The notes: a model not told the origin generated them from the sequence alone. Counted from the first letter of the stretch, positions 421 to 24,437 are shown. The stretch: 26,972 nucleotides of DNA from Nitrososphaeria archaeon (GCA_050011875.1 JBEKIG010000019.1:1-26972), one strand, 5' to 3'. Numbers and translations are program-made.

Positions 421-2346
421 ATGTATAGGATATTCGGACTCTTACTGATATTGGCGTTGGCCTTCTATCTGGCCTTTATCCCCCATATCGGCTATGCCTA
501 TCCGCTTCATGGGGACGAATGGATGCATATGACCTATGCTGAAACCATTGCCGGGACCGGCGCCATCACTTTTCCCGATCCCTTTACCGGGCTCACCGAG
601 ATAAACCTGGGGGATAACCTCTGGGTGGGCTATCACATACTCTGGGCCATCTTCCAGCAGGTCAGCGGCATAGACTGGATCATCCTTTTTAGGTACTTCC
701 CTTCCATTATATTCATGTTCACCGTCCTGGCTGTCTATATCTTAGCCTCCCGGCAGGGCTACGGTTTGGAGGCCGCCTTCTTTACCTGCCTCATACCTAC
801 CACAGGCGGTTTGCTTGGCCCCGCCTTCATGGTTCCCATGGCTCTGGGCATGCTCTTCATCCCGCTATCGATGTTTCTCGCCTTTAATATCAAGACGTGG
901 CCGTCCTATCTGTTGATATTTCTCTTTACCACTTACCTATTAGTATCCCACGCTACAACTGCCATAGTGCTGTGTATCATTCTCGCTCCTTACATCCTGT
1001 TAAATATCAAGGGGAACATCCGGCACGCTGCGGGAGTGTTGTCTGGCCTCGTTCTGCCATTTGCCCTGTCATTGCCCTGGACTTTCCAGATAGCGGTTCA
1101 GACCGCCCGGCAATTGCTGGTACCCCAGTACTTCTCGCCTTATATTGTGTTGCCTGATCTTCTTTGGAAGTACGGATTGATACCGGTCGCTTTCAGCTTC
1201 ATCGGTACCGTCATATTAGTAATAAAGGGCGGTAAGAAGAATCTTGGTTTGGTGCTCGGGCTGGCTTTGTTGCTCCTCATCATGCTTCTATTTATCAGGT
1301 TCCATTACGGTTTGTCCACAGTATATGAACGTGGTCTGACAGCTATGCTGTTAATGTTGAGCATTATAGCAGGCGCAGGATTGTTCTGGGTGAGGAAGCT
1401 AAAGCTACCTGCTGCGTTTCTTAAGAAATACAGATCAACAATTTTCACGGTCGCCGCGCCCGTCGTCTCAGTGTTGCTCTTGGCCGTCGTACTTGCCGTC
1501 GCCATCCCCACCAGGCTCAACGCATCTTTTTACCACATGATCGACGATCAAGACTACCGGGCATTCATATGGATAAAAGATAACGTCGCCGAGGATTACT
1601 CAACTGCCATGTTAGATCCGTGGAAAGCAACAGCCTTTAGCGCGGTCGCTATGAAAAATGCCCTGCATAGGATATGGATGAACCAGGAGCCGGTCGATGA
1701 TTCTATATACCAATTTCTGAACGGCGGAGGCAGCGGAACCACTTTTTTTCAAGACAATAAAGTATCCTTCGTCTATAACCGGCTGCCATGTAGTAGTCCC
1801 GATCTGATAGAAGTGAGCAATAATATTTTTCTCACCAATCCCAATATATCAACCAGTTTTGCTGTGAAAGCTGATCTGCAAAATGGCGGATTTGAGGCCG
1901 TCTATGGCACACCGCCTGCGTACTGGGGTCAATGGTTACAGAATTGCCAGCCATTATTCCTGTTTCCACAGCCGGGTAGAAACGGGGGTACCAGTGCAGC
2001 TATTAGAATATCAGAAATAGGATCATTTAACCCATGGCCTCAAGCTATCTGGACACAAAATGTGCCGGTTGAGGCAGGCAAATCATATATTATAGGGGGT
2101 TGGATAAAAACTGATAATATCACCGGTGAGAATGGAGCTTCAATTGTTCCTGATTGGAAAGGTCCCGGGAATGTTTTTCTCGGGGCGACCCCAATTATGA
2201 AACAACTCAAGGGCACTAACGACTGGATGTATTATCAGGGAAAAGTAATTGCTCCACTCGGGGCAACCGCGTGCACCGTTTGCTGCTCGATAAGCGGAAG
2301 TACAGGCATTGCGTGGTTTGATGATATGGTATTCAAAGAGCAATGA
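421..2346 (+). CDS. multi-pass membrane protein, putative GT-C-fold glycosyltransferase with C-terminal carbohydrate-binding-like domain
   Basis: About 10 or more hydrophobic segments. Acidic DE pair (HGDEW) in the first loop after TM1, as in GT-C enzymes. The C-terminal ~155 aa carry LQNGGFE...VEAGKSYIIGGWIKT...GTNDW...AWFDD, a CBM4/9-like pattern. Confidence 0.6.
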   Translation: MYRIFGLLLILALAFYLAFIPHIGYAYPLHGDEWMHMTYAETIAGTGAITFPDPFTGLTEINLGDNLWVGYHILWAIFQQVSGIDWIILFRYFPSIIFMFTVLAVYILASRQGYGLEAAFFTCLIPTTGGLLGPAFMVPMALGMLFIPLSMFLAFNIKTWPSYLLIFLFTTYLLVSHATTAIVLCIILAPYILLNIKGNIRHAAGVLSGLVLPFALSLPWTFQIAVQTARQLLVPQYFSPYIVLPDLLWKYGLIPVAFSFIGTVILVIKGGKKNLGLVLGLALLLLIMLLFIRFHYGLSTVYERGLTAMLLMLSIIAGAGLFWVRKLKLPAAFLKKYRSTIFTVAAPVVSVLLLAVVLAVAIPTRLNASFYHMIDDQDYRAFIWIKDNVAEDYSTAMLDPWKATAFSAVAMKNALHRIWMNQEPVDDSIYQFLNGGGSGTTFFQDNKVSFVYNRLPCSSPDLIEVSNNIFLTNPNISTSFAVKADLQNGGFEAVYGTPPAYWGQWLQNCQPLFLFPQPGRNGGTSAAIRISEIGSFNPWPQAIWTQNVPVEAGKSYIIGGWIKTDNITGENGASIVPDWKGPGNVFLGATPIMKQLKGTNDWMYYQGKVIAPLGATACTVCCSISGSTGIAWFDDMVFKEQ

Positions 2347-2653: not shown

Positions 2654-3193
2654 ATGAATATCGTTGCTTTTATTATTTTAATTCTTCTCTCGCAGCTTGG
2701 TTATTCTATTGGCGCTGTGGCAATGGCAAGCAAAAAAGAATTGAAACCGCAGATAATGGATTTGCTATTATTATTGGCTATTTGGGCCGGTGGGATATAT
2801 TTGGGACTCAGTCTTAATCTAAATAGATGGATCATGATTTTCATCTGGTTAGCTGCCAGTATTATAATAGGAATGTTGGCAGTAATGCCTCGAAAACTAA
2901 ATACAAAAGTGGTTCCAAATAAAGCTATTGGAACAGGTGAGAACAAAGATAATAAATCAATGAACTTGTTTAGAAGACTATGGAATAAATATAAAGAATT
3001 TTTTGCCAGAGTAGGAAGCTTCCAAACGGGAATAGACCTTGCATTGTTCTTTTTTACTGTAATTGTCCCGGCTGCATTAATTTTAAAGATGAGCGCTGAC
3101 CCATTAGGATTGAAATATCGTGATAATAAAACTCAATGGCTTGATAGGATAGAAACCAAAGTTGATCTAGATCAATCCAAGAGGCAGTTTTGA
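2654..3193 (+). CDS. SxtJ-like membrane protein
   Basis: The C-terminus LFFFTVIVPAALILKMSADPLGLK...QWLDR...SKRQF resembles SxtJ-family proteins that accompany carbamoyltransferases. Its stop overlaps the start of the next gene. Confidence 0.7.
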   Translation: MNIVAFIILILLSQLGYSIGAVAMASKKELKPQIMDLLLLLAIWAGGIYLGLSLNLNRWIMIFIWLAASIIIGMLAVMPRKLNTKVVPNKAIGTGENKDNKSMNLFRRLWNKYKEFFARVGSFQTGIDLALFFFTVIVPAALILKMSADPLGLKYRDNKTQWLDRIETKVDLDQSKRQF

Positions 3194-4971
3194 TGTATAT
3201 ACTGGGAATATCTTGTTTTTACCATGATGCCGCAGCCGCACTAATAAAAGACGGCATTTTAATGGCAGCCGCAGAGGAAGAGCGGTTCACCAGGATAAAA
3301 CATGACTTTGGCTTTCCGGAGAATGCAATTAAATTTTGTCTCGATTTTGCCAGCATACACGCAAATGATCTGGATTATGTTGTTTTTTATGAAAAACCCT
3401 TCCACAAGTTCGAACGTATTCTTCAGACAACGCTGCAGACATTCCCCAGGTCCTGGAGGGTTTTTGGGGAAGCAATGTCAATATGGATCACCGACAAGCT
3501 CTGGATGAAAAGTATTATTGGCGACAAAATAGGTATTGAATTCGATAAAATTCTCTTTACCGACCACCATGTCTCACATGCAGCCAGTGCCTTTTACTGT
3601 TCCCCCTTTGAAGAGGCGGCAATCCTAACTGTGGATGGTGTTGGTGAATGGGCGACGGCAACCATGGGAATAGGCAAAGGAACCGATATAAAACTGATTA
3701 AAGAAATGAGGTTTCCCCATTCATTAGGCCTGTTATACAGCGCCTTCACCGCTTTCCTGGGTTTCCAGGTTAATGAGGGCGAATACAAGGTTATGGGCAT
3801 GGCCCCCTATGGTAAACCTAGGTATATTGACAAGATATACGATAAGCTGGTCAAGGTAGCTGATGACGGGTCATTCTGGACAGATATGGATTATTTCTGC
3901 TACCACTATTCGGACAGCAAAACTTTCAATAGCAAATTCGTAGGTTTATTCGGAGAACCCAGGCCAACTGAGATGCATTTCTTTACCTCTACTACAAGGT
4001 TTCCATCCTATTTTGGCGAAAAACCCTCGAACTTCAGCGAACTTTGTCAGCAGAATGAGCATTACGCGGATATAGCAGCAAGTATTCAAACTGTGTCAGA
4101 AGAAATACTGCTCAAGATGGCAAATGCCCTGCACAAAGAAACGGGATTGAAAAAACTTTGCATTGCTGGTGGTGTAGGGTTAAATTCGGTAGCTAACGGG
4201 AGAATCTTGAGGGAAACTCCTTTTGAGGAACTCTTCATTCAACCCGCAGCAGGCGATAGCGGTGGGGCCTTAGGTGCTGCGCTGTATGCATACCACGCTC
4301 TTCTGGGAAAACCGAGATCATTCATAATGGAACATGCATATTTGGGAAAGGAGTATACCAACGGAGAAATAAAAGAATTCTTAGATAGTAATAATATCGG
4401 CAATGAGTATTTTTCAAATGAGGAGAAATTGCTTGATCGAGTGGTAGATGATCTCGTTGATGGAAAAGTCGTTGGCTGGTTTCAGGGCAGGTTCGAGTGG
4501 GGTCCGAGGGCACTGGGCAACCGGAGTATCCTGGCGGATCCGCGCAGTGAGGAAATGAAGGACCTGGTGAATGTGAAAATCAAATTCCGTGAACCCTTCC
4601 GGCCTTTTGCTCCCGTAATTCTTGAAGAGAAAACTGAGGACTTTTTTCAGGGTGGCGCGGACGCCACCAAACAATTTCCAGCCAGGTATATGCTTATGGT
4701 TTTACCGTTTAAAGAGAATAAGGCAGACAGCGTAAATGCCGTAAATCACATGGGAACAGGCAGGCTTCAGACCATTAGGAAAGAATGGAATCCACGATAC
4801 TATAATATAGTGAAGAAATTTGGCGAGGCCACCGGTGTGCCTGTACTATTAAATACATCTTTCAACCTGAGGGGTGAACCCATTGTTACCTCTCCGAGCA
4901 ACGCCTTCAATACCTTCAGTAAAAGTGGCATAGACGTCCTGGTTCTGGGAGATTATATGGTCCGAAAGTAA
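3190..4971 (+). CDS. O-carbamoyltransferase, CmcH/NodU (TobZ/SxtI-like) family
   Basis: Motifs ILGISCFYHDAAAAL, HHVSHAASAF, DGVGE, HSLGLLYS, GEYKVMGMAPYG, AGGVGLN, GPRALGNRSILADP, KFREPFRPFAP and NTSFNLRGEPIV. Confidence 0.95.
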   Translation: MMYILGISCFYHDAAAALIKDGILMAAAEEERFTRIKHDFGFPENAIKFCLDFASIHANDLDYVVFYEKPFHKFERILQTTLQTFPRSWRVFGEAMSIWITDKLWMKSIIGDKIGIEFDKILFTDHHVSHAASAFYCSPFEEAAILTVDGVGEWATATMGIGKGTDIKLIKEMRFPHSLGLLYSAFTAFLGFQVNEGEYKVMGMAPYGKPRYIDKIYDKLVKVADDGSFWTDMDYFCYHYSDSKTFNSKFVGLFGEPRPTEMHFFTSTTRFPSYFGEKPSNFSELCQQNEHYADIAASIQTVSEEILLKMANALHKETGLKKLCIAGGVGLNSVANGRILRETPFEELFIQPAAGDSGGALGAALYAYHALLGKPRSFIMEHAYLGKEYTNGEIKEFLDSNNIGNEYFSNEEKLLDRVVDDLVDGKVVGWFQGRFEWGPRALGNRSILADPRSEEMKDLVNVKIKFREPFRPFAPVILEEKTEDFFQGGADATKQFPARYMLMVLPFKENKADSVNAVNHMGTGRLQTIRKEWNPRYYNIVKKFGEATGVPVLLNTSFNLRGEPIVTSPSNAFNTFSKSGIDVLVLGDYMVRK

Positions 4972-4995
4972 GTTTTTATTTAAAAAGAGAAGAAG

Positions 4996-5175
4996 ATGAG
5001 CATATGGAAGAATTTTATATCTAAATCCGGGACATTCGGTGAGCTATTAACCTTCCTATGGCAAAGAAAACTCTGGTGGATGATCCCTATGATAGTCATG
5101 TTAGTACTATTTGGTTTATTATTCATTTTCGCCGCTGGTTCTCCGTTAGCCCCATTTATATATACGATTTTCTAA
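4996..5175 (+). CDS. DUF5989 / SxtK-like small membrane protein, 59 aa (absent from the ORF track)
   Basis: Manual translation: MSIWKNFISKSGTFGELLTFLWQRKLWWMIPMIVMLVLFGLLFIFAAGSPLAPFIYTIF. The RKxWWxxP and APFIYTxF pattern is typical of this family next to carbamoyltransferases. Confidence 0.9.
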   Translation: MSIWKNFISKSGTFGELLTFLWQRKLWWMIPMIVMLVLFGLLFIFAAGSPLAPFIYTIF

Positions 5176-5196
5176 AATCGATTCCATGATATTGCT

Positions 5197-6618
5197 ATGA
5201 GCGCCATGGACCAGAAGCAAAAGAAAAGGATCACCATCGTGGCTGCGCTGTGGATTCTCTTCGGCATTTCGGCAATGGTGCTTTTTAAGGGTTCAGCCTT
5301 CCTTCGCGTTCGTGAAGTAACTGTGGGGGCGCAGTATTCTGCCCAGATATTCACAATTTATAGTGTTCTTTTTATTCTGGGATACCTATTAGCATCAGGG
5401 TTACTGATATTGGTCACGATCTCCCGCCATCGCCGCGAAATGCTGGTTAAATGCCTGAGAAATCGATGGGTGCTAACTGTGGCCGTAATATACGTTTTCA
5501 TACTCCTCATTGTTGCACTTTTTTTACACTATTCAGTAGCAATTTTACTGTTCGTATGGACAGTTGGACTGTTTGCGACTCTTTTAATATTGGCTAAATC
5601 TGAAAAGCAGCTATTAAGCTGGATGGCACGTATTTTCGTTATGTTTCTCTCCCTACTAATAACCATTTATGCCGTAGAAGGCCTCATTAGAGTGAGCAAA
5701 GCTGACCTAGGATTTAACGGTCGCCAAGGTGGATATAGTTATACATGGGGACATAAGATAGTAAATAACAGCCTGGGATTTCGTGAAAAGGAATTTATTA
5801 TACCAAAGCCACAAAATGTATATCGTATAATGGTTCTCGGTGACTCATTCACACAGGGAGTTGGACTTGCAGAAGAGGAGCGGTATTCTGATCGATTAGA
5901 AGCTTTGCTTGCTACCGAGTTTCATGCTAAGAAAATCGAAGTTCTGAATTTTGGCGTTTGGGGTATTGCGACTGTCGATGAGAGGAATATTCTTATGAAA
6001 TATAAAGACATTGTCAAGCCAGATCTAATAATTGTGGGATTTTGCCAAAACGATACTCAGCCAAGGGCCGAGGACTATTCAATCGAGAAAAGCAAATATG
6101 ATATTTATTTTAACTTAATTGATAGTCTCTCATTATTCGGCCTTGAAGAAGTAAAAGGCATACTCCATTCCGGGTATCAGATTGTGCTGACTAAACTGGG
6201 TTATATACCCTCGTGGCAAGTAGCTTTGCAGAGAACATACGAGGAAGAGTCACCCGATTGGAAGCAATTTGTCGCAGCTCTACAGGATATAAAGACGATG
6301 TCAGATGATATTGGTCTTCCATCTCCTGTATTCGCCGTGCTTAACTCGGGATGGAGATATGATACACCGACTGACTACAATAATCCGGACGATGAACTCG
6401 CTCTTTATCTTAGATGGTATAATCAAGCCGAGAACGCGGCAAGAAAAATCGGATTTACAACCGTAAATTTCAAAGAGGAGTTTGCCAGGCAACTACCTAA
6501 TGAAATTATGGCAGTCAATAGATACGATAGACATCCGAACTCTAGAATGAATGAGATTTACGCGCAGAAGTTGTTTCAAGTTGTAGCACCTATAATAAGA
6601 AGCACTAATGAACGCTAA
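5197..6618 (+). CDS. membrane-anchored SGNH/GDSL hydrolase-family protein
   Basis: Several N-terminal TM helices, followed by SGNH blocks VLGDSFTQG (I), NFGVWG (II), GFCQND (III) and DRHPN (V, DxH). Confidence 0.88.
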   Translation: MSAMDQKQKKRITIVAALWILFGISAMVLFKGSAFLRVREVTVGAQYSAQIFTIYSVLFILGYLLASGLLILVTISRHRREMLVKCLRNRWVLTVAVIYVFILLIVALFLHYSVAILLFVWTVGLFATLLILAKSEKQLLSWMARIFVMFLSLLITIYAVEGLIRVSKADLGFNGRQGGYSYTWGHKIVNNSLGFREKEFIIPKPQNVYRIMVLGDSFTQGVGLAEEERYSDRLEALLATEFHAKKIEVLNFGVWGIATVDERNILMKYKDIVKPDLIIVGFCQNDTQPRAEDYSIEKSKYDIYFNLIDSLSLFGLEEVKGILHSGYQIVLTKLGYIPSWQVALQRTYEEESPDWKQFVAALQDIKTMSDDIGLPSPVFAVLNSGWRYDTPTDYNNPDDELALYLRWYNQAENAARKIGFTTVNFKEEFARQLPNEIMAVNRYDRHPNSRMNEIYAQKLFQVVAPIIRSTNER

Positions 6619-6715: not shown

Positions 6716-8176
6716 ATGGATGACCACAACGTAGCTGAGACAGGCCGTTTTGAAGTGCGCGCTTTCGGAAAAGATATCCTGGTATATATCTCGGGTAACG
6801 GGCTTCTTCTACTTTTCACGTTTTTACAGTCCCTGATCATTCCCAAATATCTTTCAGTAGCTGGCTACGGCTACTGGCAGCTTTTTAATCTTTATATCAC
6901 TTATGTGGGTATATTACACCTGGGCTTTCTGGATGGCCTGCTGGTGCACTGGGCCGGCAAAGACCTCAACCAGATAGGCGGAGAGATAAAACCAGCCATC
7001 AGGTTTCTCGTCCTGCAGCAATTAGCGGTTATTATTCCCCTGGGCTTAGTCACTTACTTGCTGCTGCAACCACCTTTCCAATTGATAGGATTAATGGTAT
7101 GCATATATGCCTTTATCTTTAACCTAGCGACTTTTTTCATTCTTACAACGCAGGCTATTAGGCAGTTCCGGTTGCTCACCGTGTTAAATGTGGGTAGAGG
7201 ATTTGCCTTCCTGGCTTTAGTCGTCCTTATTTTTGTTTCAGGCCACCTTGAATACCAATATGTTATTATTGCTGCGCTAGCAGCTTATCTGCTCTTTATG
7301 GTTGCTCTTGCTGTCAGTTACCGACGGTATCTGCAGGGCAATAACTCTTCTGCTCCATCACTGGCTTCCTATAGTAAAAAAAATATTAATATTGGTATAT
7401 TTATACTTCTCGGTAACTTCGTCTTCGTCATCTTCTGGTCCCTGGACCGCCTGCTGGTGAACTCCTCCTTTACTATTGAACAGTTTGCCGTTTATGCCTT
7501 TGCCCTAGCAATGGCCAATATTGTCTTCGTCTTTATCAGAGCGATAGCCGATGTCTCTTTCCCCCATTTATCAGCGGCGGCGCCGGAACAAAGGACCAGG
7601 GCTTATCAACTGGGTAAGCGCGTGCTGATTCTTTGCTGGGCTGTATCAATAGATGCCTACTTCCCGCTCGCCGCGTTGATTCAGTTTTATCTTCCACATT
7701 ACACTGGCAGCCTGCCCATTGTAAAGATCGTGCTGGGAACGATGGGCTTGAGCAGCCTTATACTAATTCTTCACGTTAATTACTACCGGTTATATCGAAA
7801 ACAGCGGCAATACTTCGGCATTGGGATAACCGCGCTGGCTCTTGCAGTCCTGCTGGTGCTGATAGCCATAAAAGTGATGGGCACTTTGGAAAGTGTGGCA
7901 ATGGCTATACTGATAAGTTCCTTCGTATGGTATATTATTAATGAGTTGAGCTTGAAAGCCGTGACAGGAGAAAGCAACGTGACGATATGGAAAAGCCTTA
8001 TAATTATGGGATGCTATTTCGCTTGCTTCTGGATTGCTTCATTCCTCAATTCCTGGTTTATAGCGCAAATGTTGATTTATGCTGGCTTTTTCCTTGTAAT
8101 TAGCTTTGGTTTTTTTCACACTGACTTGCGTGATCTATTACTTATGGTTCAAAGAAGCAGAAATAGACGTAATTGA
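6716..8176 (+). CDS. Wzx-like oligosaccharide flippase (MOP superfamily)
   Basis: 486 aa and highly hydrophobic. IIPKYLSVAGYGYWQLF, LDRLLV and FAVYAFA match the polysaccharide flippase pattern. Glycan-cluster context. Confidence 0.85.
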   Translation: MDDHNVAETGRFEVRAFGKDILVYISGNGLLLLFTFLQSLIIPKYLSVAGYGYWQLFNLYITYVGILHLGFLDGLLVHWAGKDLNQIGGEIKPAIRFLVLQQLAVIIPLGLVTYLLLQPPFQLIGLMVCIYAFIFNLATFFILTTQAIRQFRLLTVLNVGRGFAFLALVVLIFVSGHLEYQYVIIAALAAYLLFMVALAVSYRRYLQGNNSSAPSLASYSKKNINIGIFILLGNFVFVIFWSLDRLLVNSSFTIEQFAVYAFALAMANIVFVFIRAIADVSFPHLSAAAPEQRTRAYQLGKRVLILCWAVSIDAYFPLAALIQFYLPHYTGSLPIVKIVLGTMGLSSLILILHVNYYRLYRKQRQYFGIGITALALAVLLVLIAIKVMGTLESVAMAILISSFVWYIINELSLKAVTGESNVTIWKSLIIMGCYFACFWIASFLNSWFIAQMLIYAGFFLVISFGFFHTDLRDLLLMVQRSRNRRN

Positions 8177-9175: not shown

Positions 9176-11467
9176 CTACTTGATATTCCCTTGCGCATCC
9201 TTATATATCACTGCACCGCCGTTGTAATAGATCCTGTTCCTGTTATCCAGTGATACTATATCATCTATATTTACTACGGTTTGTTGCCGCTTCCATGATA
9301 GATCATTGGGGATAATCGCTATTATTACCCCATGATTTATATTGTACTTCCTGAGAAAAATATAGGCACCGTCGGGTATCGGATATTTTCCCTTCAGAGA
9401 TTTGTCCTGCACGGTGATATAGTGTCCAAATTCGTAACCTCTATACGCGGCAAAGAGGCTTCTTCCACTGTCATCAAACCATACTTGTGTTTTGCTGTCC
9501 ATCCGGTCCAGCAACCATAATGCTCCGCTAGCCTCTGGCGGGCTGAACCACGAATATAGATAATCACTGCCGGCGTCAAGAGGATGCGTTATAAAAGATG
9601 TTCCTGGTTCAGCTATAGCGTAGACGAATTCACTGGCAAAAAAGAATAGTGCTATCAACAACAAAGCCAGTATACCCTGCCAAGTCTGCGTCTGATTCAA
9701 TTGATGGGGAAGGCTATCTGTGCTAACGCCGGTCGGTGGTGCCGTCGCGTCACTTGTTGTCAGCCTGGATACCCTCTGGAACCTGAAACCAAGTCGTTTC
9801 CAGCCCAGGTTTAGCTTTTTCCATGTCAGCCCCAGAAATAATTCACCACCGGAGATACAGAACGGCGCCAGAAACAACAATGCTATGGTATAGAGCCTTT
9901 CCACGCTTGAATAATCCGTTAAAAAAGGAACCACTATGCAAACAAGCAGAAAGGAAAAACACGCCAGTGCAAAGATGTCGTATTCTCCATAAACTTTTTT
10001 TCGTGGCCGGGCAATGATCAGCTTCAAAATACCGATGCCAATGAAGAACTGCATCAGCAATAAGAGACCAATGTGAATGTAACGCAGAGCGCCAGGTTGT
10101 CCTGCGGTCAATATGAAGGACGCTTCTCGCGTATTTAAATTGAATAACTCGTTATATAAGCTTGCCGTAAGATGTTGACCTATATGCGCAATTGCGCTAA
10201 ATGTTGATGACTGCGCATTATAAATATACCAGCCAAGAGCTGACACTATGAAAAGTAACACAAAGGTCGTCGTCATCAGGGCGCCTCTTGGTTTATTAAA
10301 GACCAGCCATAAGGATAATGCAATCAGACAAAGAATTAAGAAAACATACGATACGGTATAATGAGATACTATCAGCGCAAATGCGAAAGTGATCAGCAAA
10401 ATTCTTCTATTGAGCTGGCTGACCTGTTTGTCCACAATGATTAATATTATCAGTGCAAGGAAGAACATGCCGATCTCTTGCCTCGGCAATATTGTCATGG
10501 TAGCATAGAACACCGAGATTGTTATCAGATAGAAAGCAGCAAGAAACGCGTTCTTATTGCCTACCTGCCTCTCGTAGACCGTATACAAGCCTAAGGGCAC
10601 CAGGGCATAAAATATGGGCCATATGATAATAAATAACCATCTTCCATCAAGATTTAGTATGTTAGAGAATATGGCGGGTAGAATGGTGACGCTGAGCATA
10701 GCATTATATGGGTCGGTCACCGCGGCTGAATTCCAGACCCCGTTGGCTGCTACTAGGCTATATAGATAGTACTCGTGTCTAGCATCTCGCCCCGTCACGT
10801 CGAAGGATGATAAAGAATAATGAAGAAGCAGAGCCAGTGCAAGTAAGAATATTATCAGGGGGTATAATTCATGCGGGATGAATTTGCCAAAGACAATAAG
10901 GGCTACGACAACGGCGCCCAACCCTAGCACCAATAGCTGAACAGGAATAGCGCCGGTTTGATGTGCGTTGAGCAAACAGTCCCCGAGAATGCTGACAGAC
11001 AGCAATAAGAATAGTAAAAGCGCCGGAGGAGACAATAGAGTTCTACAGTCTATACGTATGGATTCGGCATAACCTTTATCCCTGATGTAGGCTATCAAAG
11101 AGAGGATTCCCAGGACAACCGTCCATGTAATTACTAGAGGCAAGGTTGAAATCGGACGTGAAATGCCGATATACGGGTAGAACCCGTTTATGAGGAATCC
11201 GAGGAACATATCGAAGGCAAGGCTTAAGCCAACACAATATACTAACGTTTTAACCGAGCCCAAATTATGAAGCTTGAAAATCCGAATGATAATAATCCCT
11301 GGAATAAAGGTGAGGTAGATAAGACCAACGGTTTGCCTCAAAACCGGGATATCGATGCCCAAAGCACTCAATCCCAGGAGGCCCAGCACAATGAACTGAA
11401 CAATAGAGATTACGAGAAGGAATTTCTTGATTTCCCAGTCGTTTATCTGAAGAGGGTCAGCCATCAT
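9176..11467 (-). CDS. DUF2206-like multi-pass membrane protein, possibly GT-C fold
   Basis: N-terminus PLQINDWEIKKFL, motifs GRDARHEYY, YNAMLSVTILP, RQEIG and SHYTVSY, and C-terminal NRIYYNGGAVIY resemble DUF2206 proteins. Recognised from recalled family features, not from a search. Confidence 0.75.
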   Translation of the reverse strand: MMADPLQINDWEIKKFLLVISIVQFIVLGLLGLSALGIDIPVLRQTVGLIYLTFIPGIIIIRIFKLHNLGSVKTLVYCVGLSLAFDMFLGFLINGFYPYIGISRPISTLPLVITWTVVLGILSLIAYIRDKGYAESIRIDCRTLLSPPALLLFLLLSVSILGDCLLNAHQTGAIPVQLLVLGLGAVVVALIVFGKFIPHELYPLIIFLLALALLLHYSLSSFDVTGRDARHEYYLYSLVAANGVWNSAAVTDPYNAMLSVTILPAIFSNILNLDGRWLFIIIWPIFYALVPLGLYTVYERQVGNKNAFLAAFYLITISVFYATMTILPRQEIGMFFLALIILIIVDKQVSQLNRRILLITFAFALIVSHYTVSYVFLILCLIALSLWLVFNKPRGALMTTTFVLLFIVSALGWYIYNAQSSTFSAIAHIGQHLTASLYNELFNLNTREASFILTAGQPGALRYIHIGLLLLMQFFIGIGILKLIIARPRKKVYGEYDIFALACFSFLLVCIVVPFLTDYSSVERLYTIALLFLAPFCISGGELFLGLTWKKLNLGWKRLGFRFQRVSRLTTSDATAPPTGVSTDSLPHQLNQTQTWQGILALLLIALFFFASEFVYAIAEPGTSFITHPLDAGSDYLYSWFSPPEASGALWLLDRMDSKTQVWFDDSGRSLFAAYRGYEFGHYITVQDKSLKGKYPIPDGAYIFLRKYNINHGVIIAIIPNDLSWKRQQTVVNIDDIVSLDNRNRIYYNGGAVIYKDAQGNIK

Positions 11468-12598: not shown

Positions 12599-13582
12599 TT
12601 ATCCTGATTGGTATATCTTTTCAATCAATCTCATTACTTTTAAGGAATCAGCCGAGTTGGCTGTCGCTACCGGGGCATTCGTGTCTATGCATTGAATAAA
12701 TGTTCTTACCTCTTCTTCAAAGGAATTGTCAATCGAAAATGCAAACCTCTCTTCTTTTGTCCAGACTGCTTCCGGGGCCTCCGTTCGGTTTTCAGCTACA
12801 GACATCTCCTCTTTTCCATATGTCCCCGAGGGTGTTAACAAGCCGTTAATGACGATGTAACCCCGTTCCATGAACATTTCGAAGGAAAAAATGTGTCGCC
12901 ATTGTGTCATCGTGGAGTGAAGCGATGCGACCTGCCCCCGTGAATTCTTCAGGATTGCGAATACGTTATCCTCAATGTCCAGGTGCCAGTACAGATCCGA
13001 GCAAACAGCCTTTACTTCTTCGAACGAGTCACAGAACATTAAGAAAAGATCGAGCATGTGTATGCCCTGGTCCATCAGAATCCCGCCACCGGCATAGGCT
13101 TTCTTGGCGCGCCAGGTGTTGAAGAAATCTTTATCTACACTCTTTCCATAGCGCCCTCTCAGCCACAATATTTTCCCGTATTTACCAGAATCGACCAGCC
13201 TTTTCGCTTCAATAATGCTCTGGTGCTGCCGATGGTTGAAACCAACCATGAATTTACATCCGGGATTTCTCTTTTCAGCACCGATTATTTCCAAAATCTG
13301 GGCCGAATTGACGCCGGGCGGTTTCTCGCAGAAAACATGTTTCCCTGAATCCAGTCCACGAATTATTAAATCTTTGTTCAAATAGTTCGGGGTACAGACA
13401 AAAACAATATCAACATCATCATCGTTAAATATTTCATTGGGCTCTTTGGTAAATTTGAAGTTACCCTCTTGAGGCACGGAATCACATACATATTTCACTG
13501 AACAATCTCGGATAGAATTTATATTGTCCTTCCTTATTCTACCCATCTTTCCAAAGCCTAGAATACCTGCTTTATGATGCAT
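12599..13582 (-). CDS. Gfo/Idh/MocA family oxidoreductase
   Basis: GILGFGKMG Rossmann motif, HVFCEKP, VGFNHR and GGGILMDQGIHMLD. Start moved to ATG 13582, which has AGGAG upstream and overlaps the preceding gene's end. Confidence 0.9.
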   Translation of the reverse strand: MHHKAGILGFGKMGRIRKDNINSIRDCSVKYVCDSVPQEGNFKFTKEPNEIFNDDDVDIVFVCTPNYLNKDLIIRGLDSGKHVFCEKPPGVNSAQILEIIGAEKRNPGCKFMVGFNHRQHQSIIEAKRLVDSGKYGKILWLRGRYGKSVDKDFFNTWRAKKAYAGGGILMDQGIHMLDLFLMFCDSFEEVKAVCSDLYWHLDIEDNVFAILKNSRGQVASLHSTMTQWRHIFSFEMFMERGYIVINGLLTPSGTYGKEEMSVAENRTEAPEAVWTKEERFAFSIDNSFEEEVRTFIQCIDTNAPVATANSADSLKVMRLIEKIYQSG

Positions 13583-14645
13583 TTTGGATACTCCTATAAT
13601 CATTGAGATATTGTTTTAAGCTATCGTCTATCGGGAGCTTCCTTTTTAGCATTTCACCGGGACCTTTAGTTAATATAAAACTAAGATTTTCGTCAACATT
13701 CTTTTTATCCTTAGATAAAGCAACTAAAAATGGCTCCATTTGTTCAGATTCAAGGCGAATATCAGGGTAGTTCTTTTCCAATGCTTTTCTCATCTGTTGG
13801 TAAGATTTCTCTGGCAAAATCCCAAGCCTAAAGGATATATAATTTGCCATATCCATTCCTATTGTAACTGCCTGACCATGGCATACTTTATAGCTTGTGA
13901 TAGACTCGATAGCATGACCGAATGTGTGACCATAATTTAATATGTTTCGGTAATCCCTATCGAATTCATCCTTTTCTATTATTTTCTTCTTAATCGATAA
14001 ACTTCTAAGTATTAGCTCATTGAGTACAGGGCTTGAAGCTGACTCAGTATAATGAGACAGAATATATTCCAGGCTGTCTTCCCCATCTAAAAGGTGAACC
14101 TTAATTATTTCCCCTAAGCCTGATTTTATATCGATTAGTGATAAAGTTTTGAGAAAATTGAAATCTAATACTATATGGTCTGGTGGATAATAAGTTCCCA
14201 GCTGATTTTTAAACTCACCTACATTGATTGAAGTTTTACTTCCGATGCAGCTATCACTCTGTGATAATAGAGTAGTGGGATATAAAATCCATGCTATTCC
14301 CCGGAACAGTATTGATGATACGAATCCAGTTATATCCTGGATGATGCCTCCACCAATTGCCACTAGCCTGTCATCCCTTTTAATACTATTATTTATAAGG
14401 AGCTTTATGATAGTTTGAGCGTAGTCGAGGGTCTTATGCGACTCGCTTGCTTCAACTATCAGATGCTTCTGTTTTGCTAATATACTATGAAGCTTGTCCT
14501 TGTAGTGATAGAATACAGATTGATCAATTATATAAAAGGATTTTTCTGACGAGTTCTTAATCAAAGCCTCGGAGAAATCATCTACAAATATAATGGAATA
14601 GTCTTTTATATTAGACTTCACTTTTAGCTCTTTAAGTGTTGACAT
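13572..14645 (-). CDS. AroB-like sugar-phosphate cyclase (3-dehydroquinate synthase superfamily)
   Basis: GGGIIQDITGF, PTTLLSQSDSCIGSK, KNQLGTYYPP, GLGEIIK, NYGHTFGHAIES, HGQAV and DKK. Context argues against housekeeping aroB. The start (ATG 14645 or GTG 14654) is uncertain. Confidence 0.85.
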   Translation of the reverse strand: MSTLKELKVKSNIKDYSIIFVDDFSEALIKNSSEKSFYIIDQSVFYHYKDKLHSILAKQKHLIVEASESHKTLDYAQTIIKLLINNSIKRDDRLVAIGGGIIQDITGFVSSILFRGIAWILYPTTLLSQSDSCIGSKTSINVGEFKNQLGTYYPPDHIVLDFNFLKTLSLIDIKSGLGEIIKVHLLDGEDSLEYILSHYTESASSPVLNELILRSLSIKKKIIEKDEFDRDYRNILNYGHTFGHAIESITSYKVCHGQAVTIGMDMANYISFRLGILPEKSYQQMRKALEKNYPDIRLESEQMEPFLVALSKDKKNVDENLSFILTKGPGEMLKRKLPIDDSLKQYLNDYRSIQNAS

Positions 14646-15393
14646 AACCACCATCCACGATGATATTCTGCCCCGAAATGTAAGTATTCAGCTCACTTGA
14701 TAGGAATAATATGACCTTCGATATATCTTCAGGGGTAGCAAGTCTTCCCATCGGTATTCTCTTTACTAAATCTTTAATTTCGGTTTCGCTCAATGTTTTT
14801 TTTGTCAGATCGGTTAAAACAAAACCAGGGGAAACGCAATTCACCAATATATTATATGGTGCTAGGTCAATTGCGGCAGCTCTGGTCAGCCCAATTAATC
14901 CAGATTTAGTTGATGAATAAATTGACCTTTTCTCCCTGCTGATCACACCGAATATGGAAGCAATATTGATAATTTTGCCGTAGCCATTTTTTTTCATGAT
15001 TTGGCTTACCTCTCGACATATCACAAAGGGTGCCTTAAGGTTTACGTTAATAATATCACTCCAGTCGGTCAGCGAAGTGTCGTAGATATAATCAATTCTA
15101 TTGATCCCAGAATTATTAATACAGACGTCTATCTTACTAAACTTTCTCAACTCATGAGTCAAGTTAAACAGAGAGTCTTCACTTAAAAAATCCGCGCAGT
15201 AATATTTGATGTTCTTTCTATTGTTCCTTATCAGGTTCTCGTTTAATTCTTTTATTTCATCCGGTCTTGTACCTGTTAGAATAAGCTCGGCTCCTAGCTT
15301 CCCAAAATCATGCGCTAACTGCTTGCCAATCCCATGCGTTGCGCCGGTAATAAGAACCACTTTATTTTCAAAATGAATCTCCATTACGCTCAC
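14632..15393 (-). CDS. short-chain dehydrogenase/reductase (FabG-like SDR)
   Basis: ITGATHGIG, NNSG, YSSTK (YxxxK), VSPGFVLTD and VDGG. Confidence 0.92.
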   Translation of the reverse strand: MSVMEIHFENKVVLITGATHGIGKQLAHDFGKLGAELILTGTRPDEIKELNENLIRNNRKNIKYYCADFLSEDSLFNLTHELRKFSKIDVCINNSGINRIDYIYDTSLTDWSDIINVNLKAPFVICREVSQIMKKNGYGKIINIASIFGVISREKRSIYSSTKSGLIGLTRAAAIDLAPYNILVNCVSPGFVLTDLTKKTLSETEIKDLVKRIPMGRLATPEDISKVILFLSSELNTYISGQNIIVDGGYVNT

Positions 15394-15582
15394 TTCTCCA
15401 AAATCACATCTGGCATTTATGTCTCAACAATGTTTGATTCGGCTTTTTGCTAATATTAATTCTCCAATTCTCTCAGAAGTTCTTGAATATCAGTAACAGA
15501 ATTGGTTAAGAAATTAACAGTCCTACTAACTATACGTGAAGTCGTAAAAAATATTGATGTATCGAGTTGGAAAAGAATCTCC

Positions 15583-15759
15583 CTATAAGGTTCTGTCCAG
15601 AGCACGTCGCTCAGTCTCCCTATCCGAGGCTGTTTTCACATCCTTGTCGTGCCCAGATTGGACCAAGACACCGGTCCTGTGAGTTCCCAAATATGCACCG
15701 GCGGATAATGCAGCCTGCTCGGCTACGGCGAGATATTTATTAAGGTCCACATAATTCAC
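15583..15759 (-). pseudogene. truncated N-terminal fragment of an inositol monophosphatase (SuhB/CysQ)-family gene
   Basis: Manual translation (58 aa): MNYVDLNKYLAVAEQAALSAGAYLGTHRTGVLVQSGHDKDVKTASDRETERRALDRTL*. It matches the IMPase N-terminal A..AA..AG..L and D..T..D...E pattern. The catalytic EE and DPLDGT motifs are absent. Confidence 0.6.
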
Positions 15760-15780
15760 AAGGCGTTTCCTTGAAATAGG

Positions 15781-16413
15781 CTAGTCACGTTTTGTTTTTC
15801 CCAGTCTAAATGCCAGATATGTTGTAATCAGGTGAACAAGTATCAGGTGAATATCCTCAACAGGCCCGTATTCGCCTTTCAGAGTACTTACATGAACACA
15901 ATGATGGCAGGCGTTTTTCATAGAGCCTCCATCAAAGCCAACTATTCCAACTGTAATGCCATTTTTATTGTTGGCATAGTCAATTGCTCTAAGTAAATTG
16001 GGAGAATTTCCGCTTACGGATATGGCTACCAGGACATCCCCGGCGTTAAAAAGGGGCCGCAATTGCGCCATAAAGAGGTTCTCGTATCCCTCATCATTGC
16101 CAACCGCCGTTAGATAGGCGGAGTTGTCAACCAGGCTTAGTGCCTTGTATGGTTTCTTGCCATCCACGATAGTCCCGTAGGTCAAATCTTCAGCAAAATG
16201 CGAACAGGTGGCCGCGCTTCCGCCATTCCCGGCCATGAAGATGGTTTTTCCATTATCCCTGGCCTTTTCAAATACCCCAATCATTTTTTCGATTGCCGCA
16301 AGATCGAGAGTCCCACACAGTTCAGTCAGGTAAGACAGATACCCACGGGCGTAATCTTTTCCAGATTGCGAATTTGAATATATTTTTTCCAACCTATTCA
16401 TCTGTATCCTCAT
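15781..16413 (-). CDS. SIS-domain sugar isomerase, GmhA-like phosphoheptose isomerase
   Basis: FMAGNGGSAATCSHFAED, LTAVGND, ISVSGNSPN, GFDGG and VEDIH. Confidence 0.88.
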   Translation of the reverse strand: MRIQMNRLEKIYSNSQSGKDYARGYLSYLTELCGTLDLAAIEKMIGVFEKARDNGKTIFMAGNGGSAATCSHFAEDLTYGTIVDGKKPYKALSLVDNSAYLTAVGNDEGYENLFMAQLRPLFNAGDVLVAISVSGNSPNLLRAIDYANNKNGITVGIVGFDGGSMKNACHHCVHVSTLKGEYGPVEDIHLILVHLITTYLAFRLGKTKRD

Positions 16414-16452
16414 TAACTATATTCCCCAAAATCACTATTTTCGTTGCGGATG

Positions 16453-17403
16453 CTATTCACAACCATGGCTGAAATGAGGATTAAGAACACTTAACAGGTT
16501 CCTCACGGACTGCATTTCCATTTCCAATCTAGCCTCCCTGGCGTATGACCCGATATGCGGTGTAACCACAACATTGTCAAGCTGGCGTAGAGGTCCGGAA
16601 TATGGCTCTTTGCCGAAAACGTCAAGTGCAGCGCCGGACAGATGCCCGCTGGTTAACTGTAGATAAAGAGCTTCCTCATCAACAACATCCCCTCTGGAGA
16701 GGTTTAGCAGATATGCCCCTTTTCTCATAAGCTCCATTTCTTTTTTTCCAATCATGTGTTTATTAGCTTCACTATACGAAATATGCAGGCATAGGATTTC
16801 GCTGTCTTTTAGCAATTTTTTCATGTTAACTAATTGGACGTGGTTTGACTGGAGCCATTGAAAATCAGGTTCTATTTCAACCCCGGACACGTTTGTACCC
16901 AACCGCAACAATAGTTCGGCCACCTTCTTGCCGATACGTCCCAGGCCAACGATGCCAACTCTCTTACCTTGCAATAAGCTTCCGGTGTCCTTCCTCCAAT
17001 TACCTTTTCTGAGTTCTCTATCAAGAAAGGAAATTCGCCTCAGCAGATCGAAGATCAGCCCGACCGTAAGTTCAGCCACTGCCACTGTGGGGGCATCCGG
17101 CGTATTCAGCACAGCTATGCCTTTCCGTTTGGCAGCTTTCAAATCCACATTGTCCAGCCCGATTCCACAACGAGAAATTACTTTCAGGTCTTTAGCCTTT
17201 TCCAGAACCTGAGCTGTAAGTGGCTCTACCCCGGCAATCATTCCATCTGGTTTTATTTCTAGAAGAAGATTAATTACCTCATCTTCAGTTAACTTCCTGC
17301 CGTGCGGATTAAGGATAACCTCATAGCCAGCGTCTCGAAGAATACTGAGCGGTAGAGAGTCTTCCTTTCCAAAGGCGGACGTGGTGATTAATACCCTATG
17401 CAT
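16453..17403 (-). CDS. D-isomer-specific 2-hydroxyacid dehydrogenase (phosphoglycerate dehydrogenase-like)
   Basis: ISRCGIGLDNVD, GIVGLGRIG, NLSRGDVVDE, AALDVF and TPHIG. Start moved to ATG 17403 (MHRVLITT), which overlaps the aldolase end. Confidence 0.9.
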   Translation of the reverse strand: MHRVLITTSAFGKEDSLPLSILRDAGYEVILNPHGRKLTEDEVINLLLEIKPDGMIAGVEPLTAQVLEKAKDLKVISRCGIGLDNVDLKAAKRKGIAVLNTPDAPTVAVAELTVGLIFDLLRRISFLDRELRKGNWRKDTGSLLQGKRVGIVGLGRIGKKVAELLLRLGTNVSGVEIEPDFQWLQSNHVQLVNMKKLLKDSEILCLHISYSEANKHMIGKKEMELMRKGAYLLNLSRGDVVDEEALYLQLTSGHLSGAALDVFGKEPYSGPLRQLDNVVVTPHIGSYAREARLEMEMQSVRNLLSVLNPHFSHGCE

Positions 17404-18184
17404 GTTCCCACCCCAGCTTATTGCGAATAATGTTGATCCCGCCACGGCATGAATTTCCCAGGAATAGAAAATCCACGCTGAAAGCCAGCAAGCGATAACC
17501 CTGGCCAACTTTTTCTACCACCATGGCTGGATCATCTGGAACAACATGATAGCCTGCTACAGCGCCAAGCCGTCTTGCCGTGTTCTTCACCGAAGTTAAC
17601 GCCTTTACAACTGCCGGATGGTCGAACTGTCCGGGGACACCAAGGGAAGCGGAAAGGTCGTAGGGGCCGATGATAAAAGCGTCAACACCTTTTACCGACA
17701 AAATAGTTTCCAGATTCTCAACCGCCTCAATATGTTCTATCTGAACGATGACCACGCTCCCCGTTTCATTCCACTTTCTATATCCCTCAAAATCGACACC
17801 ATAGGCCTGGGCGCGGGCAAGGCCAACACCACGGAATCCCTGTGGCGGATACTTAACAGCCCCAACAGCTCGTTCAGCATCCTCCTTGTTATTGACCATC
17901 GGAACGATAACTCCATGTGCGCCGGCATCCATAACCCGTTTGATAATGGTAGCATCATTAACTCCCACCCGCACCAGCGGGATGCACCCGCTCAGTTCAA
18001 TTACCCGGATCAACTCCTGTGCCTGGTTAATATCGATGGCGCTGTGCTCCATATCCACTGTTAGCCAGTCAAATCCGGCCTTTGCCATTATCTCAGCGAT
18101 AGCAGGTTCCCCCATAGTAATCCACGATCCTATGGTTAGCTCTCTGTTTTGCAGTTTCGATTTCAGGTTCTTGATTTGATTCAT
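17396..18184 (-). CDS. HpcH/HpaI family class II pyruvate aldolase
   Basis: GFDWLTVDMEHS, GAHGVIVPMV, YPPQGFRGVG, VQIEH and IGPYDLSAS. Confidence 0.92.
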   Translation of the reverse strand: MNQIKNLKSKLQNRELTIGSWITMGEPAIAEIMAKAGFDWLTVDMEHSAIDINQAQELIRVIELSGCIPLVRVGVNDATIIKRVMDAGAHGVIVPMVNNKEDAERAVGAVKYPPQGFRGVGLARAQAYGVDFEGYRKWNETGSVVIVQIEHIEAVENLETILSVKGVDAFIIGPYDLSASLGVPGQFDHPAVVKALTSVKNTARRLGAVAGYHVVPDDPAMVVEKVGQGYRLLAFSVDFLFLGNSCRGGINIIRNKLGWEHA

Positions 18185-19578: not shown

Positions 19579-20249
19579 TTTAACCTTTTGAGTAGCTCTG
19601 CCAGCTTAAAGTCCTGCTCATCATCTATATCTACAGCCTCAAACCTATCCATTTCAAACATCTGCGGCCTAAGTCCGATTCGCCTTTTCCCACTTTGATT
19701 GAAGGACGCCCTGGAAAAGATATAGATGTTGGAGTTTTCTTCGTAGATAGGTTGGAGATCCTGCGTTCGGAGCAGTTCTTTCAGATTGTGATTAACCGGC
19801 TGCCCGTCCTGCCAGTAGAGGCGAACCTGACGACGCGTTACAGAGAAAAGTGAATCATATGTATCTAACCTCGCGAAATAGCGTTCAATGGCCCTATTTA
19901 TGGTCGCCGTAGTTAATAGGGGATTTGTGCTGTGTGTCTGTAAAAAATACTCGCCCTCAATCTGCGAGATATCATAGGCAATGATACTATTCATAGATAC
20001 AAAATCCCCTCTGATTACCTCTGGCCGCTCTATGATGCTCACCCGGTCGAAATTCCGTAATGCATCTTCGGAAATTATCTGACTGTCTGTATCAATAATT
20101 ATATTGGTTATATATTTACTGCCCCTCAAACTCATGAGTATCCAATGAAACAAGGGACGTCCGCAGAAGGATCTCATATTTTTGCCAGGTATGCGCTCAC
20201 TGTGATCTTTCTGTGGCACTAATGCCGTTACCTTAAATTCCCTATCCAT
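19557..20249 (-). CDS. acylneuraminate cytidylyltransferase family protein (NeuA/KdsB-like)
   Basis: HSERIPGKNMR, IIDTDS, QTHSTNPL, YEENS and AVDIDDEQDF. Confidence 0.92.
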   Translation of the reverse strand: MDREFKVTALVPQKDHSERIPGKNMRSFCGRPLFHWILMSLRGSKYITNIIIDTDSQIISEDALRNFDRVSIIERPEVIRGDFVSMNSIIAYDISQIEGEYFLQTHSTNPLLTTATINRAIERYFARLDTYDSLFSVTRRQVRLYWQDGQPVNHNLKELLRTQDLQPIYEENSNIYIFSRASFNQSGKRRIGLRPQMFEMDRFEAVDIDDEQDFKLAELLKRLKCTEGGL

Positions 20250-20389
20250 ATATCATCATGCCTAAATGTTATATAAATATTACACAATATGTCATGGTTT
20301 AATTGTGAATCACCAGCAGGCAGGACATCTAAGCAACCGACATGAAAAAGCTTAGTTTAATCCAGATCACTTCTGCACCATTGCTTTAA

Positions 20390-21427: not shown

Positions 21428-21433
21428 CGTTCT

Positions 21434-22150: not shown

Positions 22151-22262
22151 ATTACCTCCAAATACTTTGCTGCTTAGCTACGGCAACACGAATTATTCAA
22201 GCGCATGCTTTGTGATTTCTAGCCCCTAATCGTCCTTTATTTTATAAGACATTCACCCTTTA

Positions 22263-24377: not shown

Positions 24378-24437
24378 CTCCGTTGGGGCTTGGCAGGCTT
24401 CGCTGGCGGAGCGGAATACAGGGAGAAAAACCGTGTT
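24378..24437 (+). ncRNA. putative structured cis-regulatory RNA element, copy 2, covering the SD and GTG start of the 24433 gene
   Basis: Stem CTCCGTTGG/CTGGCGGAG with three G-U pairs, then stem AATAC/GTGTT. 47 of 58 nt identical to copy 1 without gaps. Confidence 0.55.

Follow-up and report, generated by a model that had tools for sequence, protein, structure and literature searches.

What would four genes of the kinds that stand side by side in a saxitoxin cluster do in what gene content marks as a surface-glycan locus of an archaeon? The question is raised by 26,972 nucleotides of DNA from a Nitrososphaeria archaeon (GCA_050011875.1, JBEKIG010000019.1:1-26972), here called the window, which constitute an entire contig of a 2.64-Mb, 97%-complete archaeal genome. 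In the order J-I-K-L and all on the plus strand, the window carries genes for a divergent SxtJ-like membrane protein (J), a CmcH/NodU/TobZ-type O-carbamoyltransferase (I), a DUF5989 microprotein (K) and a membrane-anchored SGNH protein (L), with a flippase candidate next (Table 1). An earlier note, written from the sequence alone, had seen here a candidate system for O-carbamoylation across the membrane. That reading holds in part: every check that could be run agreed with it, whereas the chemistry and the route through the membrane found no support. We propose that the module is an MBOAT-free O-carbamoylation machine with a carbamoyl-tyrosine shuttle, a proposal to which we give an even chance of being right.

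Four protein families and their joint occurrence

The genes of the module are tightly packed. The stop codon of J and the ATG of I overlap in TGATG, making the ATG at 3193 the probable start of I, and the remaining gaps measure 24 nt (I to K), 21 nt (K to L) and 97 nt (L to the flippase candidate). The coordinates of the open reading frames (ORFs) thus agree with the earlier description of four closely spaced, co-directional genes in front of a flippase, the latter being recognised by structure only. K, I and L each occur once in the window's genome.

The carbamoyltransferase I has the Kae1-like N-terminal and YrdC-like C-terminal domains of the CmcH/NodU/TobZ family, both above the Pfam gathering scores (Carbam_trans_N, 3.4e-88, 296.8 bits, cut-off 24; Carbam_trans_C, 7.1e-67, 224.7 bits, cut-off 27). 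Among the sequences of the Protein Data Bank (PDB), it matches GdmN (6.4e-90), NovN (4.6e-88) and TobZ (1.2e-78, over residues 9-593); the NCBIfam NodU model matches at 1.6e-42, far below its equivalog cut-off. An alignment of 32 sequences contains many invariant His, Asp and Gly columns. By homology, I would transfer the carbamoyl group of carbamoyl phosphate in an ATP-dependent manner via carbamoyl-AMP. TobZ, GdmN, NovN and NodU share this two-domain build, yet act directly on small molecules without partners such as J, K and L, as far as the available accounts describe them. In a Gemmatimonadales genome (L035, 1015-5501), I-J-K directly adjoins the genes for the large and small chains of carbamoyl-phosphate synthase, an arrangement that fits carbamoyl phosphate as the donor.

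For J, the family assignment came from comparing alignments. PF19588, which Pfam names after SxtJ (gathering score 24.4 bits), gives no match to ORF1, i.e. J, at E<=10, and a scan of the whole genome found nothing in the window, its best hit (E 0.39) lying on another contig. Likewise, neither ORF1 nor the ORF at 6716-8176 has a usable Pfam or NCBIfam match. A word-index search with ORF1 returned only five close relatives; among 1.8 billion representatives there are 342, mostly of about 170 aa and full length. When the ORF1 family (A2, 30 sequences) was aligned with 17 SxtJ ORFs, all 17 of which match PF19588, hhalign reported a probability of 98.2% and an E-value of 4.7e-14 over 74 columns, corresponding to ORF1 residues 106-179 (nt 2969-3190). 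The name itself was taken from a search with a RefSeq J-type ORF, whose relatives carry PF19588 and are called 'SxtJ family membrane protein'. Because its family aligns to PF19588-bearing ORFs, we regard ORF1 as a divergent SxtJ-like protein with a three-helix N-terminal extension of its own: three hydrophobic helices precede the conserved SxtJ core, which ends in RQF. The label 'SxtJ-like' given beforehand is therefore upheld over the core, albeit not by a PF19588 match. The idea that J and K form a small carbamoyl-lipid flippase was rejected, as the module is without a lipid-carrier enzyme and many J forms elsewhere have only about 76 aa.

A comparable set of genes is found in the saxitoxin cluster, for which the available text of PMC2679770 lists sxtI, sxtJ, sxtK and sxtL as consecutive genes of 1839, 405, 165 and 1281 bp, encoding a carbamoyltransferase, unknown proteins of 134 and 54 aa and a GDSL protein of ~426 aa. 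Order and gene sizes bear out the statement that the four family types are those of sxtI-J-K-L, with K and L resembling SxtK and SxtL in gene order and size. The archaeal module differs in its order (J-I-K-L), in lying in a glycan locus instead of an alkaloid cluster and in the divergent 179-aa form of ORF1. The functions of sxtJ and sxtK are given as unknown in the available parts of PMC2679770, PMC2684587 and PMC2885083, and a preprint (bioRxiv 10.64898/2026.06.11.731795) states, in the portion available, that SxtJ and SxtK are 'hypothesised to work in conjunction' with SxtI.

Relatives of K (alignment A1) are present in at least 550 species, and 78 of their loci, all bacterial by title and from many phyla, were kept for a survey of gene neighbourhoods. 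Hidden Markov models iterated from the window proteins detected I in 70, J in 66 and an L-type protein in 38 of the 78 loci, whose gene orders vary and include J-I-K-L. Where at least 5 kb of sequence was present on both sides of K (48 loci), a gene for I lies no more than 5 kb away in 45 cases, one for J in 46 and one for L in 24, and on the same strand as K in 45, 45 and 15, respectively. Acidobacteriota were sampled evenly (151 genomes): 64 genomes contain K, at a total of 73 places, and 64 of these places have a carbamoyltransferase within 6 kb. Conversely, K lies within 6 kb of 61 of the 68 carbamoyltransferases that score at least 249 bits, compared to 6 of the 82 weaker ones, so that the K-linked enzymes stand out as a distinct high-scoring group. 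These adjacency counts make I-J-K a nearly obligatory unit around one branch of the enzyme family. L is not an obligatory neighbour of K, being missing within 5 kb in half of the full-flank loci.

L follows K at the level of whole genomes. With L counted at E<=1e-20, the Acidobacteriota sample divides into 59 genomes with both K and L, 5 with K only, 5 with L only (4 of 86 K-free genomes without G454, which is flagged unpublished) and 82 with neither, counts that are uncorrected for shared ancestry among related and thus not independent genomes and that rest on an L profile (A4, 29 proteins) built from K-adjacent copies. A genome may hold up to at least 13 copies of L, as opposed to one or two of K. 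Of the best 150 L places, 148 are in genomes with K, and just 15 have K no more than 6 kb away; for 44 of 52 K-containing genomes, the top-scoring L either lies over 6 kb away from K or sits on a different contig, the latter being no proof of distance. In Chloroflexota, K is found in 5 of 151 genomes, and exactly these five have L at E<=2e-19 (0 of the 146 others); three further genomes of this phylum show L only at 1e-13 to 1e-14, with partial alignments. Within the window's own phylum, K matches in 6 of 401 genomes, 5 of them above the cut-off and the window's genome included in both figures, and in four archaeal class-mates with K, the genes for K, I and L are neighbours. A phylum sample around G405 (K in 17 of 20 genomes) was of no use as a contrast, and viral contigs yielded a single locus with a membrane-type K. 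Taken over the 48 loci, Acidobacteriota, Chloroflexota and archaea, the co-occurrence of the four families that had been proposed as a check was found.

The many L copies away from K were inspected at twelve dispersed genes from two genomes. Within 5 kb, none has I, J, K, an MBOAT or AT3 protein or a tyrosine-tailed micro-ORF, apart from one 34-codon ORF of doubtful reality; hence, these twelve bring no donor system of their own. One dispersed L-type gene (L092, 2407-8858, genome G402) has a gene for a very large YfhO-like membrane protein on each side (841 and 945 aa) and may belong to another unit for envelope modification that draws on this SGNH family.

That the four genes are merely unrelated neighbours, with a coincidental likeness to sxtIJKL, is barely conceivable in view of these data. 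Both the adjacency and the genome-level counts are far beyond chance, and the stop/start overlap, the short gaps and a complex model with clean controls (see below) point the same way.

There are also hints that the module has moved between lineages. I and K of the window are 80% and 73% identical, respectively, to their copies in a Candidatus Aminicenans contig (L002; I copy at 3690-5465) that has the order J-I-K-L as well and a LuxR-type response regulator beside the module, while L is only 21-23% identical in the same comparison. The high identity of I and K to these bacterial copies, together with the rarity of K in the window's phylum, suggests transfer between bacteria and archaea, with an L that may have evolved much faster or been exchanged.

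The tyrosine tail, the predicted membrane complex and the SGNH protein

K belongs to DUF5989 (PF19451, 4.5e-19, 68.7 bits, cut-off 27), a name for which we found no use in the literature searched. Its N-terminal helix is basic and is followed by a single membrane helix and a tail without charges, which in the window ends in FIYTIF. Columns L21, W22, W28, P31, S49, P53, F54, I55 and Y56 are invariant in the 30-sequence alignment A1, and the exact terminal F-x-Y-x-x-F is present in 99 of 102 homologues. On average, 4.9 lysine and arginine residues precede the helix, and the last 12 positions contain none. Based on this charge bias and on the modelled contact between the N-terminal helix and the cytoplasmic enzyme, K is predicted to have its N-terminus inside and its tail outside, i.e. 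to be a single-pass microprotein with FXYXXF at an outward C-terminus.

This is the form of DltX. As set out in the available text of PMC12148441, DltX is a membrane microprotein whose C-terminal, extracellular FXYXXF 'acyl shuttle' motif contains an invariant tyrosine, the residue that accepts D-Ala from DltB (an MBOAT protein) and passes it on to the serine of DltD (an SGNH protein); PatA bears the same motif at its own C-terminus (FIYANF, nearly the tail of K) and feeds PatB. The earlier note, which knew of no described mechanism, thus overlooked the DltX and PatA tyrosine shuttles. Its suggestion that two small proteins pass the group across the membrane was likewise too simple: the shuttle motif is in the DUF5989 protein alone, and a membrane route was not found.

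A structural model links K to the enzyme. I, J and K were folded together using alignments A5, A2 and A1, with K as the scored partner. K scored 0.60, 0.63 and 0.67, the best of three controls 0.00; at least 55% of the contacts recur between runs, and the partner has a predicted local distance difference test (pLDDT) value of at least 65. Among solved complexes, 116 of 157 attain the pass mark, as do 2 of 215 mismatches, a calibration that is only roughly valid here, where our own alignments were used. K residues 5-44 and 59 touch J (125-143 and 177-179) and I residues 71-118 (nt 3400-3543), the predicted docking surface for K. For I, J and K, the complex prediction called for by the earlier note therefore came out in favour of binding of the DUF5989 protein to the carbamoyltransferase and the SxtJ-like protein (0.63 versus 0.00), and the model speaks for an I-J-K complex that is bound to the membrane and has the N-terminus of K on the inner side.

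L was recognised through Lipase_GDSL_2 (4.2e-09, 37.6 bits, cut-off 32.9) and shows the marks of the SGNH superfamily, namely Ser in block I, Gly in block II, Asn in block III and His in block V, as well as the fold. Across 29 sequences (A4), G215, S217 and H446 never vary, and conservation is at least 90% at G253, N285 and D286, so the catalytic set is intact; the codons of Ser217 and His446 lie at nt 5845-5847 and 6532-6534. Ahead of the domain, hydropathy places five hydrophobic segments and the AlphaFold2 model six helices (6-39, 46-77, 80-88, 90-109, 112-132 and 136-169; mean pLDDT 74, with a confident SGNH core), whereas relatives mostly have one helix and some three. The N-side flank of the last helix is usually richer in lysine and arginine than its C-side. 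Since the helix count is odd with the N-terminus inside, the SGNH domain is predicted to face outward, in line with the topology check foreseen for it (1, 3 or 5 helices, positive charge on the N-side).

Structure searches with L returned generic SGNH esterases at 12-19% identity (Foldseek) and Z-scores of 15-20 against solved SGNH enzymes. In VIA-align, CgnD (8a2n_A) ranks first with a Z-score of 19.8 and a root-mean-square deviation of 3.9 over 228 aligned residues, followed by 17.7. CgnD comes from the crocagin cluster, which also encodes a carbamoyltransferase, CgnI (PMC10070186, available text). It differs from L in being a soluble and very slow leader-peptide protease with 13% identity to L and no J or K partner reported in that text; its protease assays ran up to 96 h and labelling with PMSF failed (PMC10070186). 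The true or ancestral role of CgnD may be linked to carbamoyl transfer.

The main rival to the proposed shuttle is carbamoylation at the inner face of the membrane: I could be a membrane-tethered cytoplasmic transferase that acts on a lipid-linked glycan or a sugar nucleotide, with J and K only anchoring or orienting it and L serving as an outward esterase that trims carbamoyl or other ester groups. The solved relatives TobZ, GdmN and NovN do transfer directly to their acceptors without partners, the complex model has I kept at the membrane by K and J with no sign of a relay, and L has hydrolases as its nearest structures and the usual glycine in block II. SxtL, moreover, is annotated by proposal as a decarbamoylase in the available parts of PMC2679770 and PMC2885083; a hydrolase in need of a carbamoylated substrate would co-occur with K just as well, and L is not beside K in half of the loci. 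A mere anchor, however, would not account for a terminal F-I-Y-T-L/I-F that never varies and lies across the membrane from the enzyme, nor for the identity of this tail with a proven acyl-shuttle motif (PMC12148441, available text). Up to at least 13 copies of L per genome against one or two of K fit many acceptor-specific transferases better than many trimming enzymes, and the dispersed L copies inspected have no other donor system nearby. On balance, we consider this account rather unlikely, if worth keeping in sight.

A proposed carbamoyl-tyrosine shuttle and what weighs against it

From the gene set and its conservation, the motif, the catalytic residues, the predicted topology and the I-J-K contacts we infer a series of chemical steps, an acceptor and a crossing of the membrane by the group or by the K tail. 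At the cytoplasmic face, I would convert carbamoyl phosphate and ATP to carbamoyl-AMP, as is established for the family of TobZ-type enzymes, and J and K would hold I at the membrane, as the complex model predicts. The carbamoyl group would then be loaded onto Tyr56 in the terminal FIYTIF of K, the carrier that the motif suggests. By analogy to the transfers from DltX to DltD and from PatA to PatB, the tail would show the carbamoyl-tyrosine outside to Ser217 of L, and Ser217 would hand the group to a hydroxyl of the surface glycan made and flipped by the surrounding locus. As an aryl carbamate, the loaded tyrosine would be a chemically plausible donor to a serine nucleophile. To cross the membrane, the tail of K would have to move, perhaps aided by J, or else the model is wrong. 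In other genomes, one set of I, J and K appears to act as the loader for numerous L paralogues that lie dispersed.

The closest parallel is the DltX-DltB-DltD system for teichoic acid D-alanylation in Bacillota, which, according to the available text of PMC12148441, has a single-pass FXYXXF microprotein like K and an SGNH-type partner that is anchored by an N-terminal helix and moves the group from its serine to an envelope polymer, an architecture that L matches. Unlike that system, the module has neither an MBOAT (DltB) nor a carrier protein (DltC); its loader would be a soluble, ATP-dependent carbamoyltransferase together with the SxtJ-like protein, and its cargo carbamoyl instead of D-alanyl. 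PatA/PatB, other MBOAT-SGNH pairs and AT3-SGNH enzymes such as OatA are alike in using an acyl-tyrosine intermediate that feeds an outward SGNH transferase. There, in contrast, the available accounts have the motif fused to a membrane acyltransferase that provides a tunnel and a catalytic histidine and takes acetyl-CoA as donor, and where L has the usual block II glycine, an atypical residue is found in PatB and OatA. No MBOAT or AT3 protein was found among the ORFs of the window, the 117 neighbour ORFs of 17 annotated related loci or the 31 neighbours of the twelve dispersed L genes, in keeping with the earlier note's parallel to MBOAT/SGNH acylation without an MBOAT.

Several observations weigh against the shuttle. 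The active site of I is cytoplasmic and Tyr56 is predicted outside, with nothing like an MBOAT tunnel in the locus; in the complex model, confident placement of K is limited to residues 5-44 and 59, and its tail is not put in the active site of I. At E<=10, K matches no DltX family in Pfam, only DUF5989 and, by chance, Wzz, so its FXYXXF may be convergent. The exact tail is also present in 78 of 81 K ORFs of related loci, a figure inflated by the fishing of the 78 loci with a pattern containing APFIY. L has an ordinary hydrolase glycine in block II, its nearest solved structures are esterases and a slow protease, and neither PatB nor DltD is among the 50 matches listed in Foldseek or in VIA-align, nor is AlgX listed, an absence that speaks neither for nor against a closer link. 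The 24 of 48 loci without L within 5 kb of K, the 5 of 64 K-containing Acidobacteriota genomes without a strong L and the limits of the genome counts given above add to this. Finally, carbamoyl-serine intermediates turn over slowly, and we know of no carbamoylated glycan from this organism.

Our searches found no paper describing a carbamoyl-tyrosine shuttle, nor, among the papers listed, one joining DltX or 'acyl shuttle' with carbamoyl in its title or abstract. O-carbamoylation of glycans is known as such, for example in the lipopolysaccharide core of Pseudomonas. To our knowledge, tyrosine acyl shuttles (DltX, PatA, OatA) were worked out in 2023-2025 and have so far always involved an MBOAT or AT3 protein and an acyl-thioester donor.

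The possible acceptor, its surroundings and what the module would mean

The module is flanked by three GT2 enzymes, a DUF2206 membrane protein, an RmlC fragment and sugar-nucleotide genes, as seen in the Pfam matches of the window ORFs. The ORF at 6716-8176, which also lacks a PDB sequence match, has an Atlas model with template modelling (TM) scores of 0.88-0.77 to Polysacc_synt, Polysacc_synt_3 and MurJ clusters: 0.88 to Polysacc_synt and Polysacc_synt_3 and 0.84 to MurJ-bearing clusters. The original label 'Wzx' thus finds no family match and is backed by a MOP-like fold from structure superposition. The lipid-linked glycan to which the module would add its group is probably exported by this candidate flippase.

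Table 1. Features of the module and of the adjoining flippase candidate in the window (positions in nt)
Feature	Position	Strand	Basis
J, divergent SxtJ-like membrane protein	2654..3193	+	ORF, 179 aa
I, CmcH/NodU/TobZ-type O-carbamoyltransferase	3190..4971	+	ORF, 593 aa; Pfam and PDB matches
K, DUF5989 microprotein	4996..5175	+	ORF, 59 aa; PF19451
C-terminal hexapeptide F-I-Y-T-I-F of K (FXYXXF)	5155..5172	+	Tyr56 codon 5161-5163; stop 5173-5175
L, membrane-anchored SGNH protein, whole ORF	5197..6618	+	473 aa
N-terminal membrane part of L, residues 1-169	5197..5703	+	Hydropathy and AlphaFold2
SGNH domain of L, residues about 205-469	5809..6603	+	Lipase_GDSL_2, conserved residues, fold
MOP-superfamily (Wzx/MurJ-like) flippase candidate	6716..8176	+	486 aa; Atlas structure search

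Alternatively, the relay may be real and the glycan locus incidental, with an extracellular small molecule, peptide, lipid or protein as the acceptor. The neighbours of the module leave room for this: of the 17 annotated bacterial loci, nine carry glycan genes and one has carbamoyl-phosphate synthase, while eight have unrelated surroundings without glycan genes nearby, and in Sinorhizobium meliloti the module on pSymB stands alone beside a two-component regulator. The same gene types also occur in an alkaloid (saxitoxin) cluster (PMC2679770, available text), and the best structural neighbour of L, CgnD, comes from a peptide-alkaloid pathway that likewise has a carbamoyltransferase. In the window, by contrast, the module lies between glycosyltransferases and the MOP flippase candidate, with only the 97-nt gap to the latter, and the tyrosine-shuttle/SGNH systems proven so far, as covered by the available text of PMC12148441, all act on envelope polymers. 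Such an acceptor seems improbable to us.

Besides the module, the window contains a run of genes on the minus strand (12599-23522) for a GFO/IDH/MocA oxidoreductase, a 3-dehydroquinate-synthase-like protein, a short-chain dehydrogenase/reductase (SDR), a SIS domain protein, a D-2-hydroxyacid dehydrogenase, an HpcH/HpaI aldolase, a 465-aa protein without a family, a CTP_transf_3 cytidylyltransferase and two GT2 enzymes. It also includes a UDP-glucose/GDP-mannose dehydrogenase, which, like the cytidylyltransferase, would stand at the end of the pathway. From its gene content, the run would fit the synthesis of an acidic sugar activated with CMP, in which an HpcH-type aldolase and a DHQS-like cyclase replace the usual synthases. 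Two large proteins, one of 641 aa (421-2346, plus strand; hydrophobic N-terminal half, non-hydrophobic C-terminal half, no family match) and the DUF2206 protein of 763 aa (9176-11467, minus strand), may be archaeal glycan polymerases or transferases of uncertain type. A 574-aa protein at 24433-26157 on the plus strand has no family match. The genome is marked as archaeal by Ribosomal_L37ae, which among the controls was detected in archaea only, and a methanogen check found no McrA.

The proposed shuttle is directly testable, as the model bacterium Sinorhizobium meliloti 1021 has the full set. On its pSymB (L086, NC_003078.1, about 482.2-486.4 kb), L (442 aa) is divergent from J, K and I, which follow one another in the order J-K-I; K has 49 aa and ends in FIYTLF, and I has 610 aa. 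The regulator beside the module comprises a HisKA_3 kinase and a LuxR-type response regulator, in a region that is unannotated in the PLSDB record.

In a wider and more tentative version of the proposal, which we hold to be possible although short of even odds, the module represents a widespread MBOAT-independent shuttle in which one I-J-K loader supplies many dispersed L transferases that carbamoylate different envelope polymers, with sxtJ, sxtK and sxtL redefined, SxtL as the final carbamoyl transferase rather than a decarbamoylase, and CgnI/CgnD as descendants. The module is common, given the at least 550 species with a DUF5989 relative and the 64 of 151 sampled Acidobacteriota. If our proposal is true, it would be an undescribed variant of the recently solved bacterial tyrosine-shuttle mechanism and would add a third way to load such a shuttle, with a soluble enzyme that depends on ATP, and carbamoyl as a new group. 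It would also give a testable function to the SxtJ, SxtK/DUF5989 and SxtL-type SGNH families, which have been without one for 18 years. Unnoticed +43 Da decorations would then be predicted for the envelopes of many microbes of soil and sediment, archaea included.

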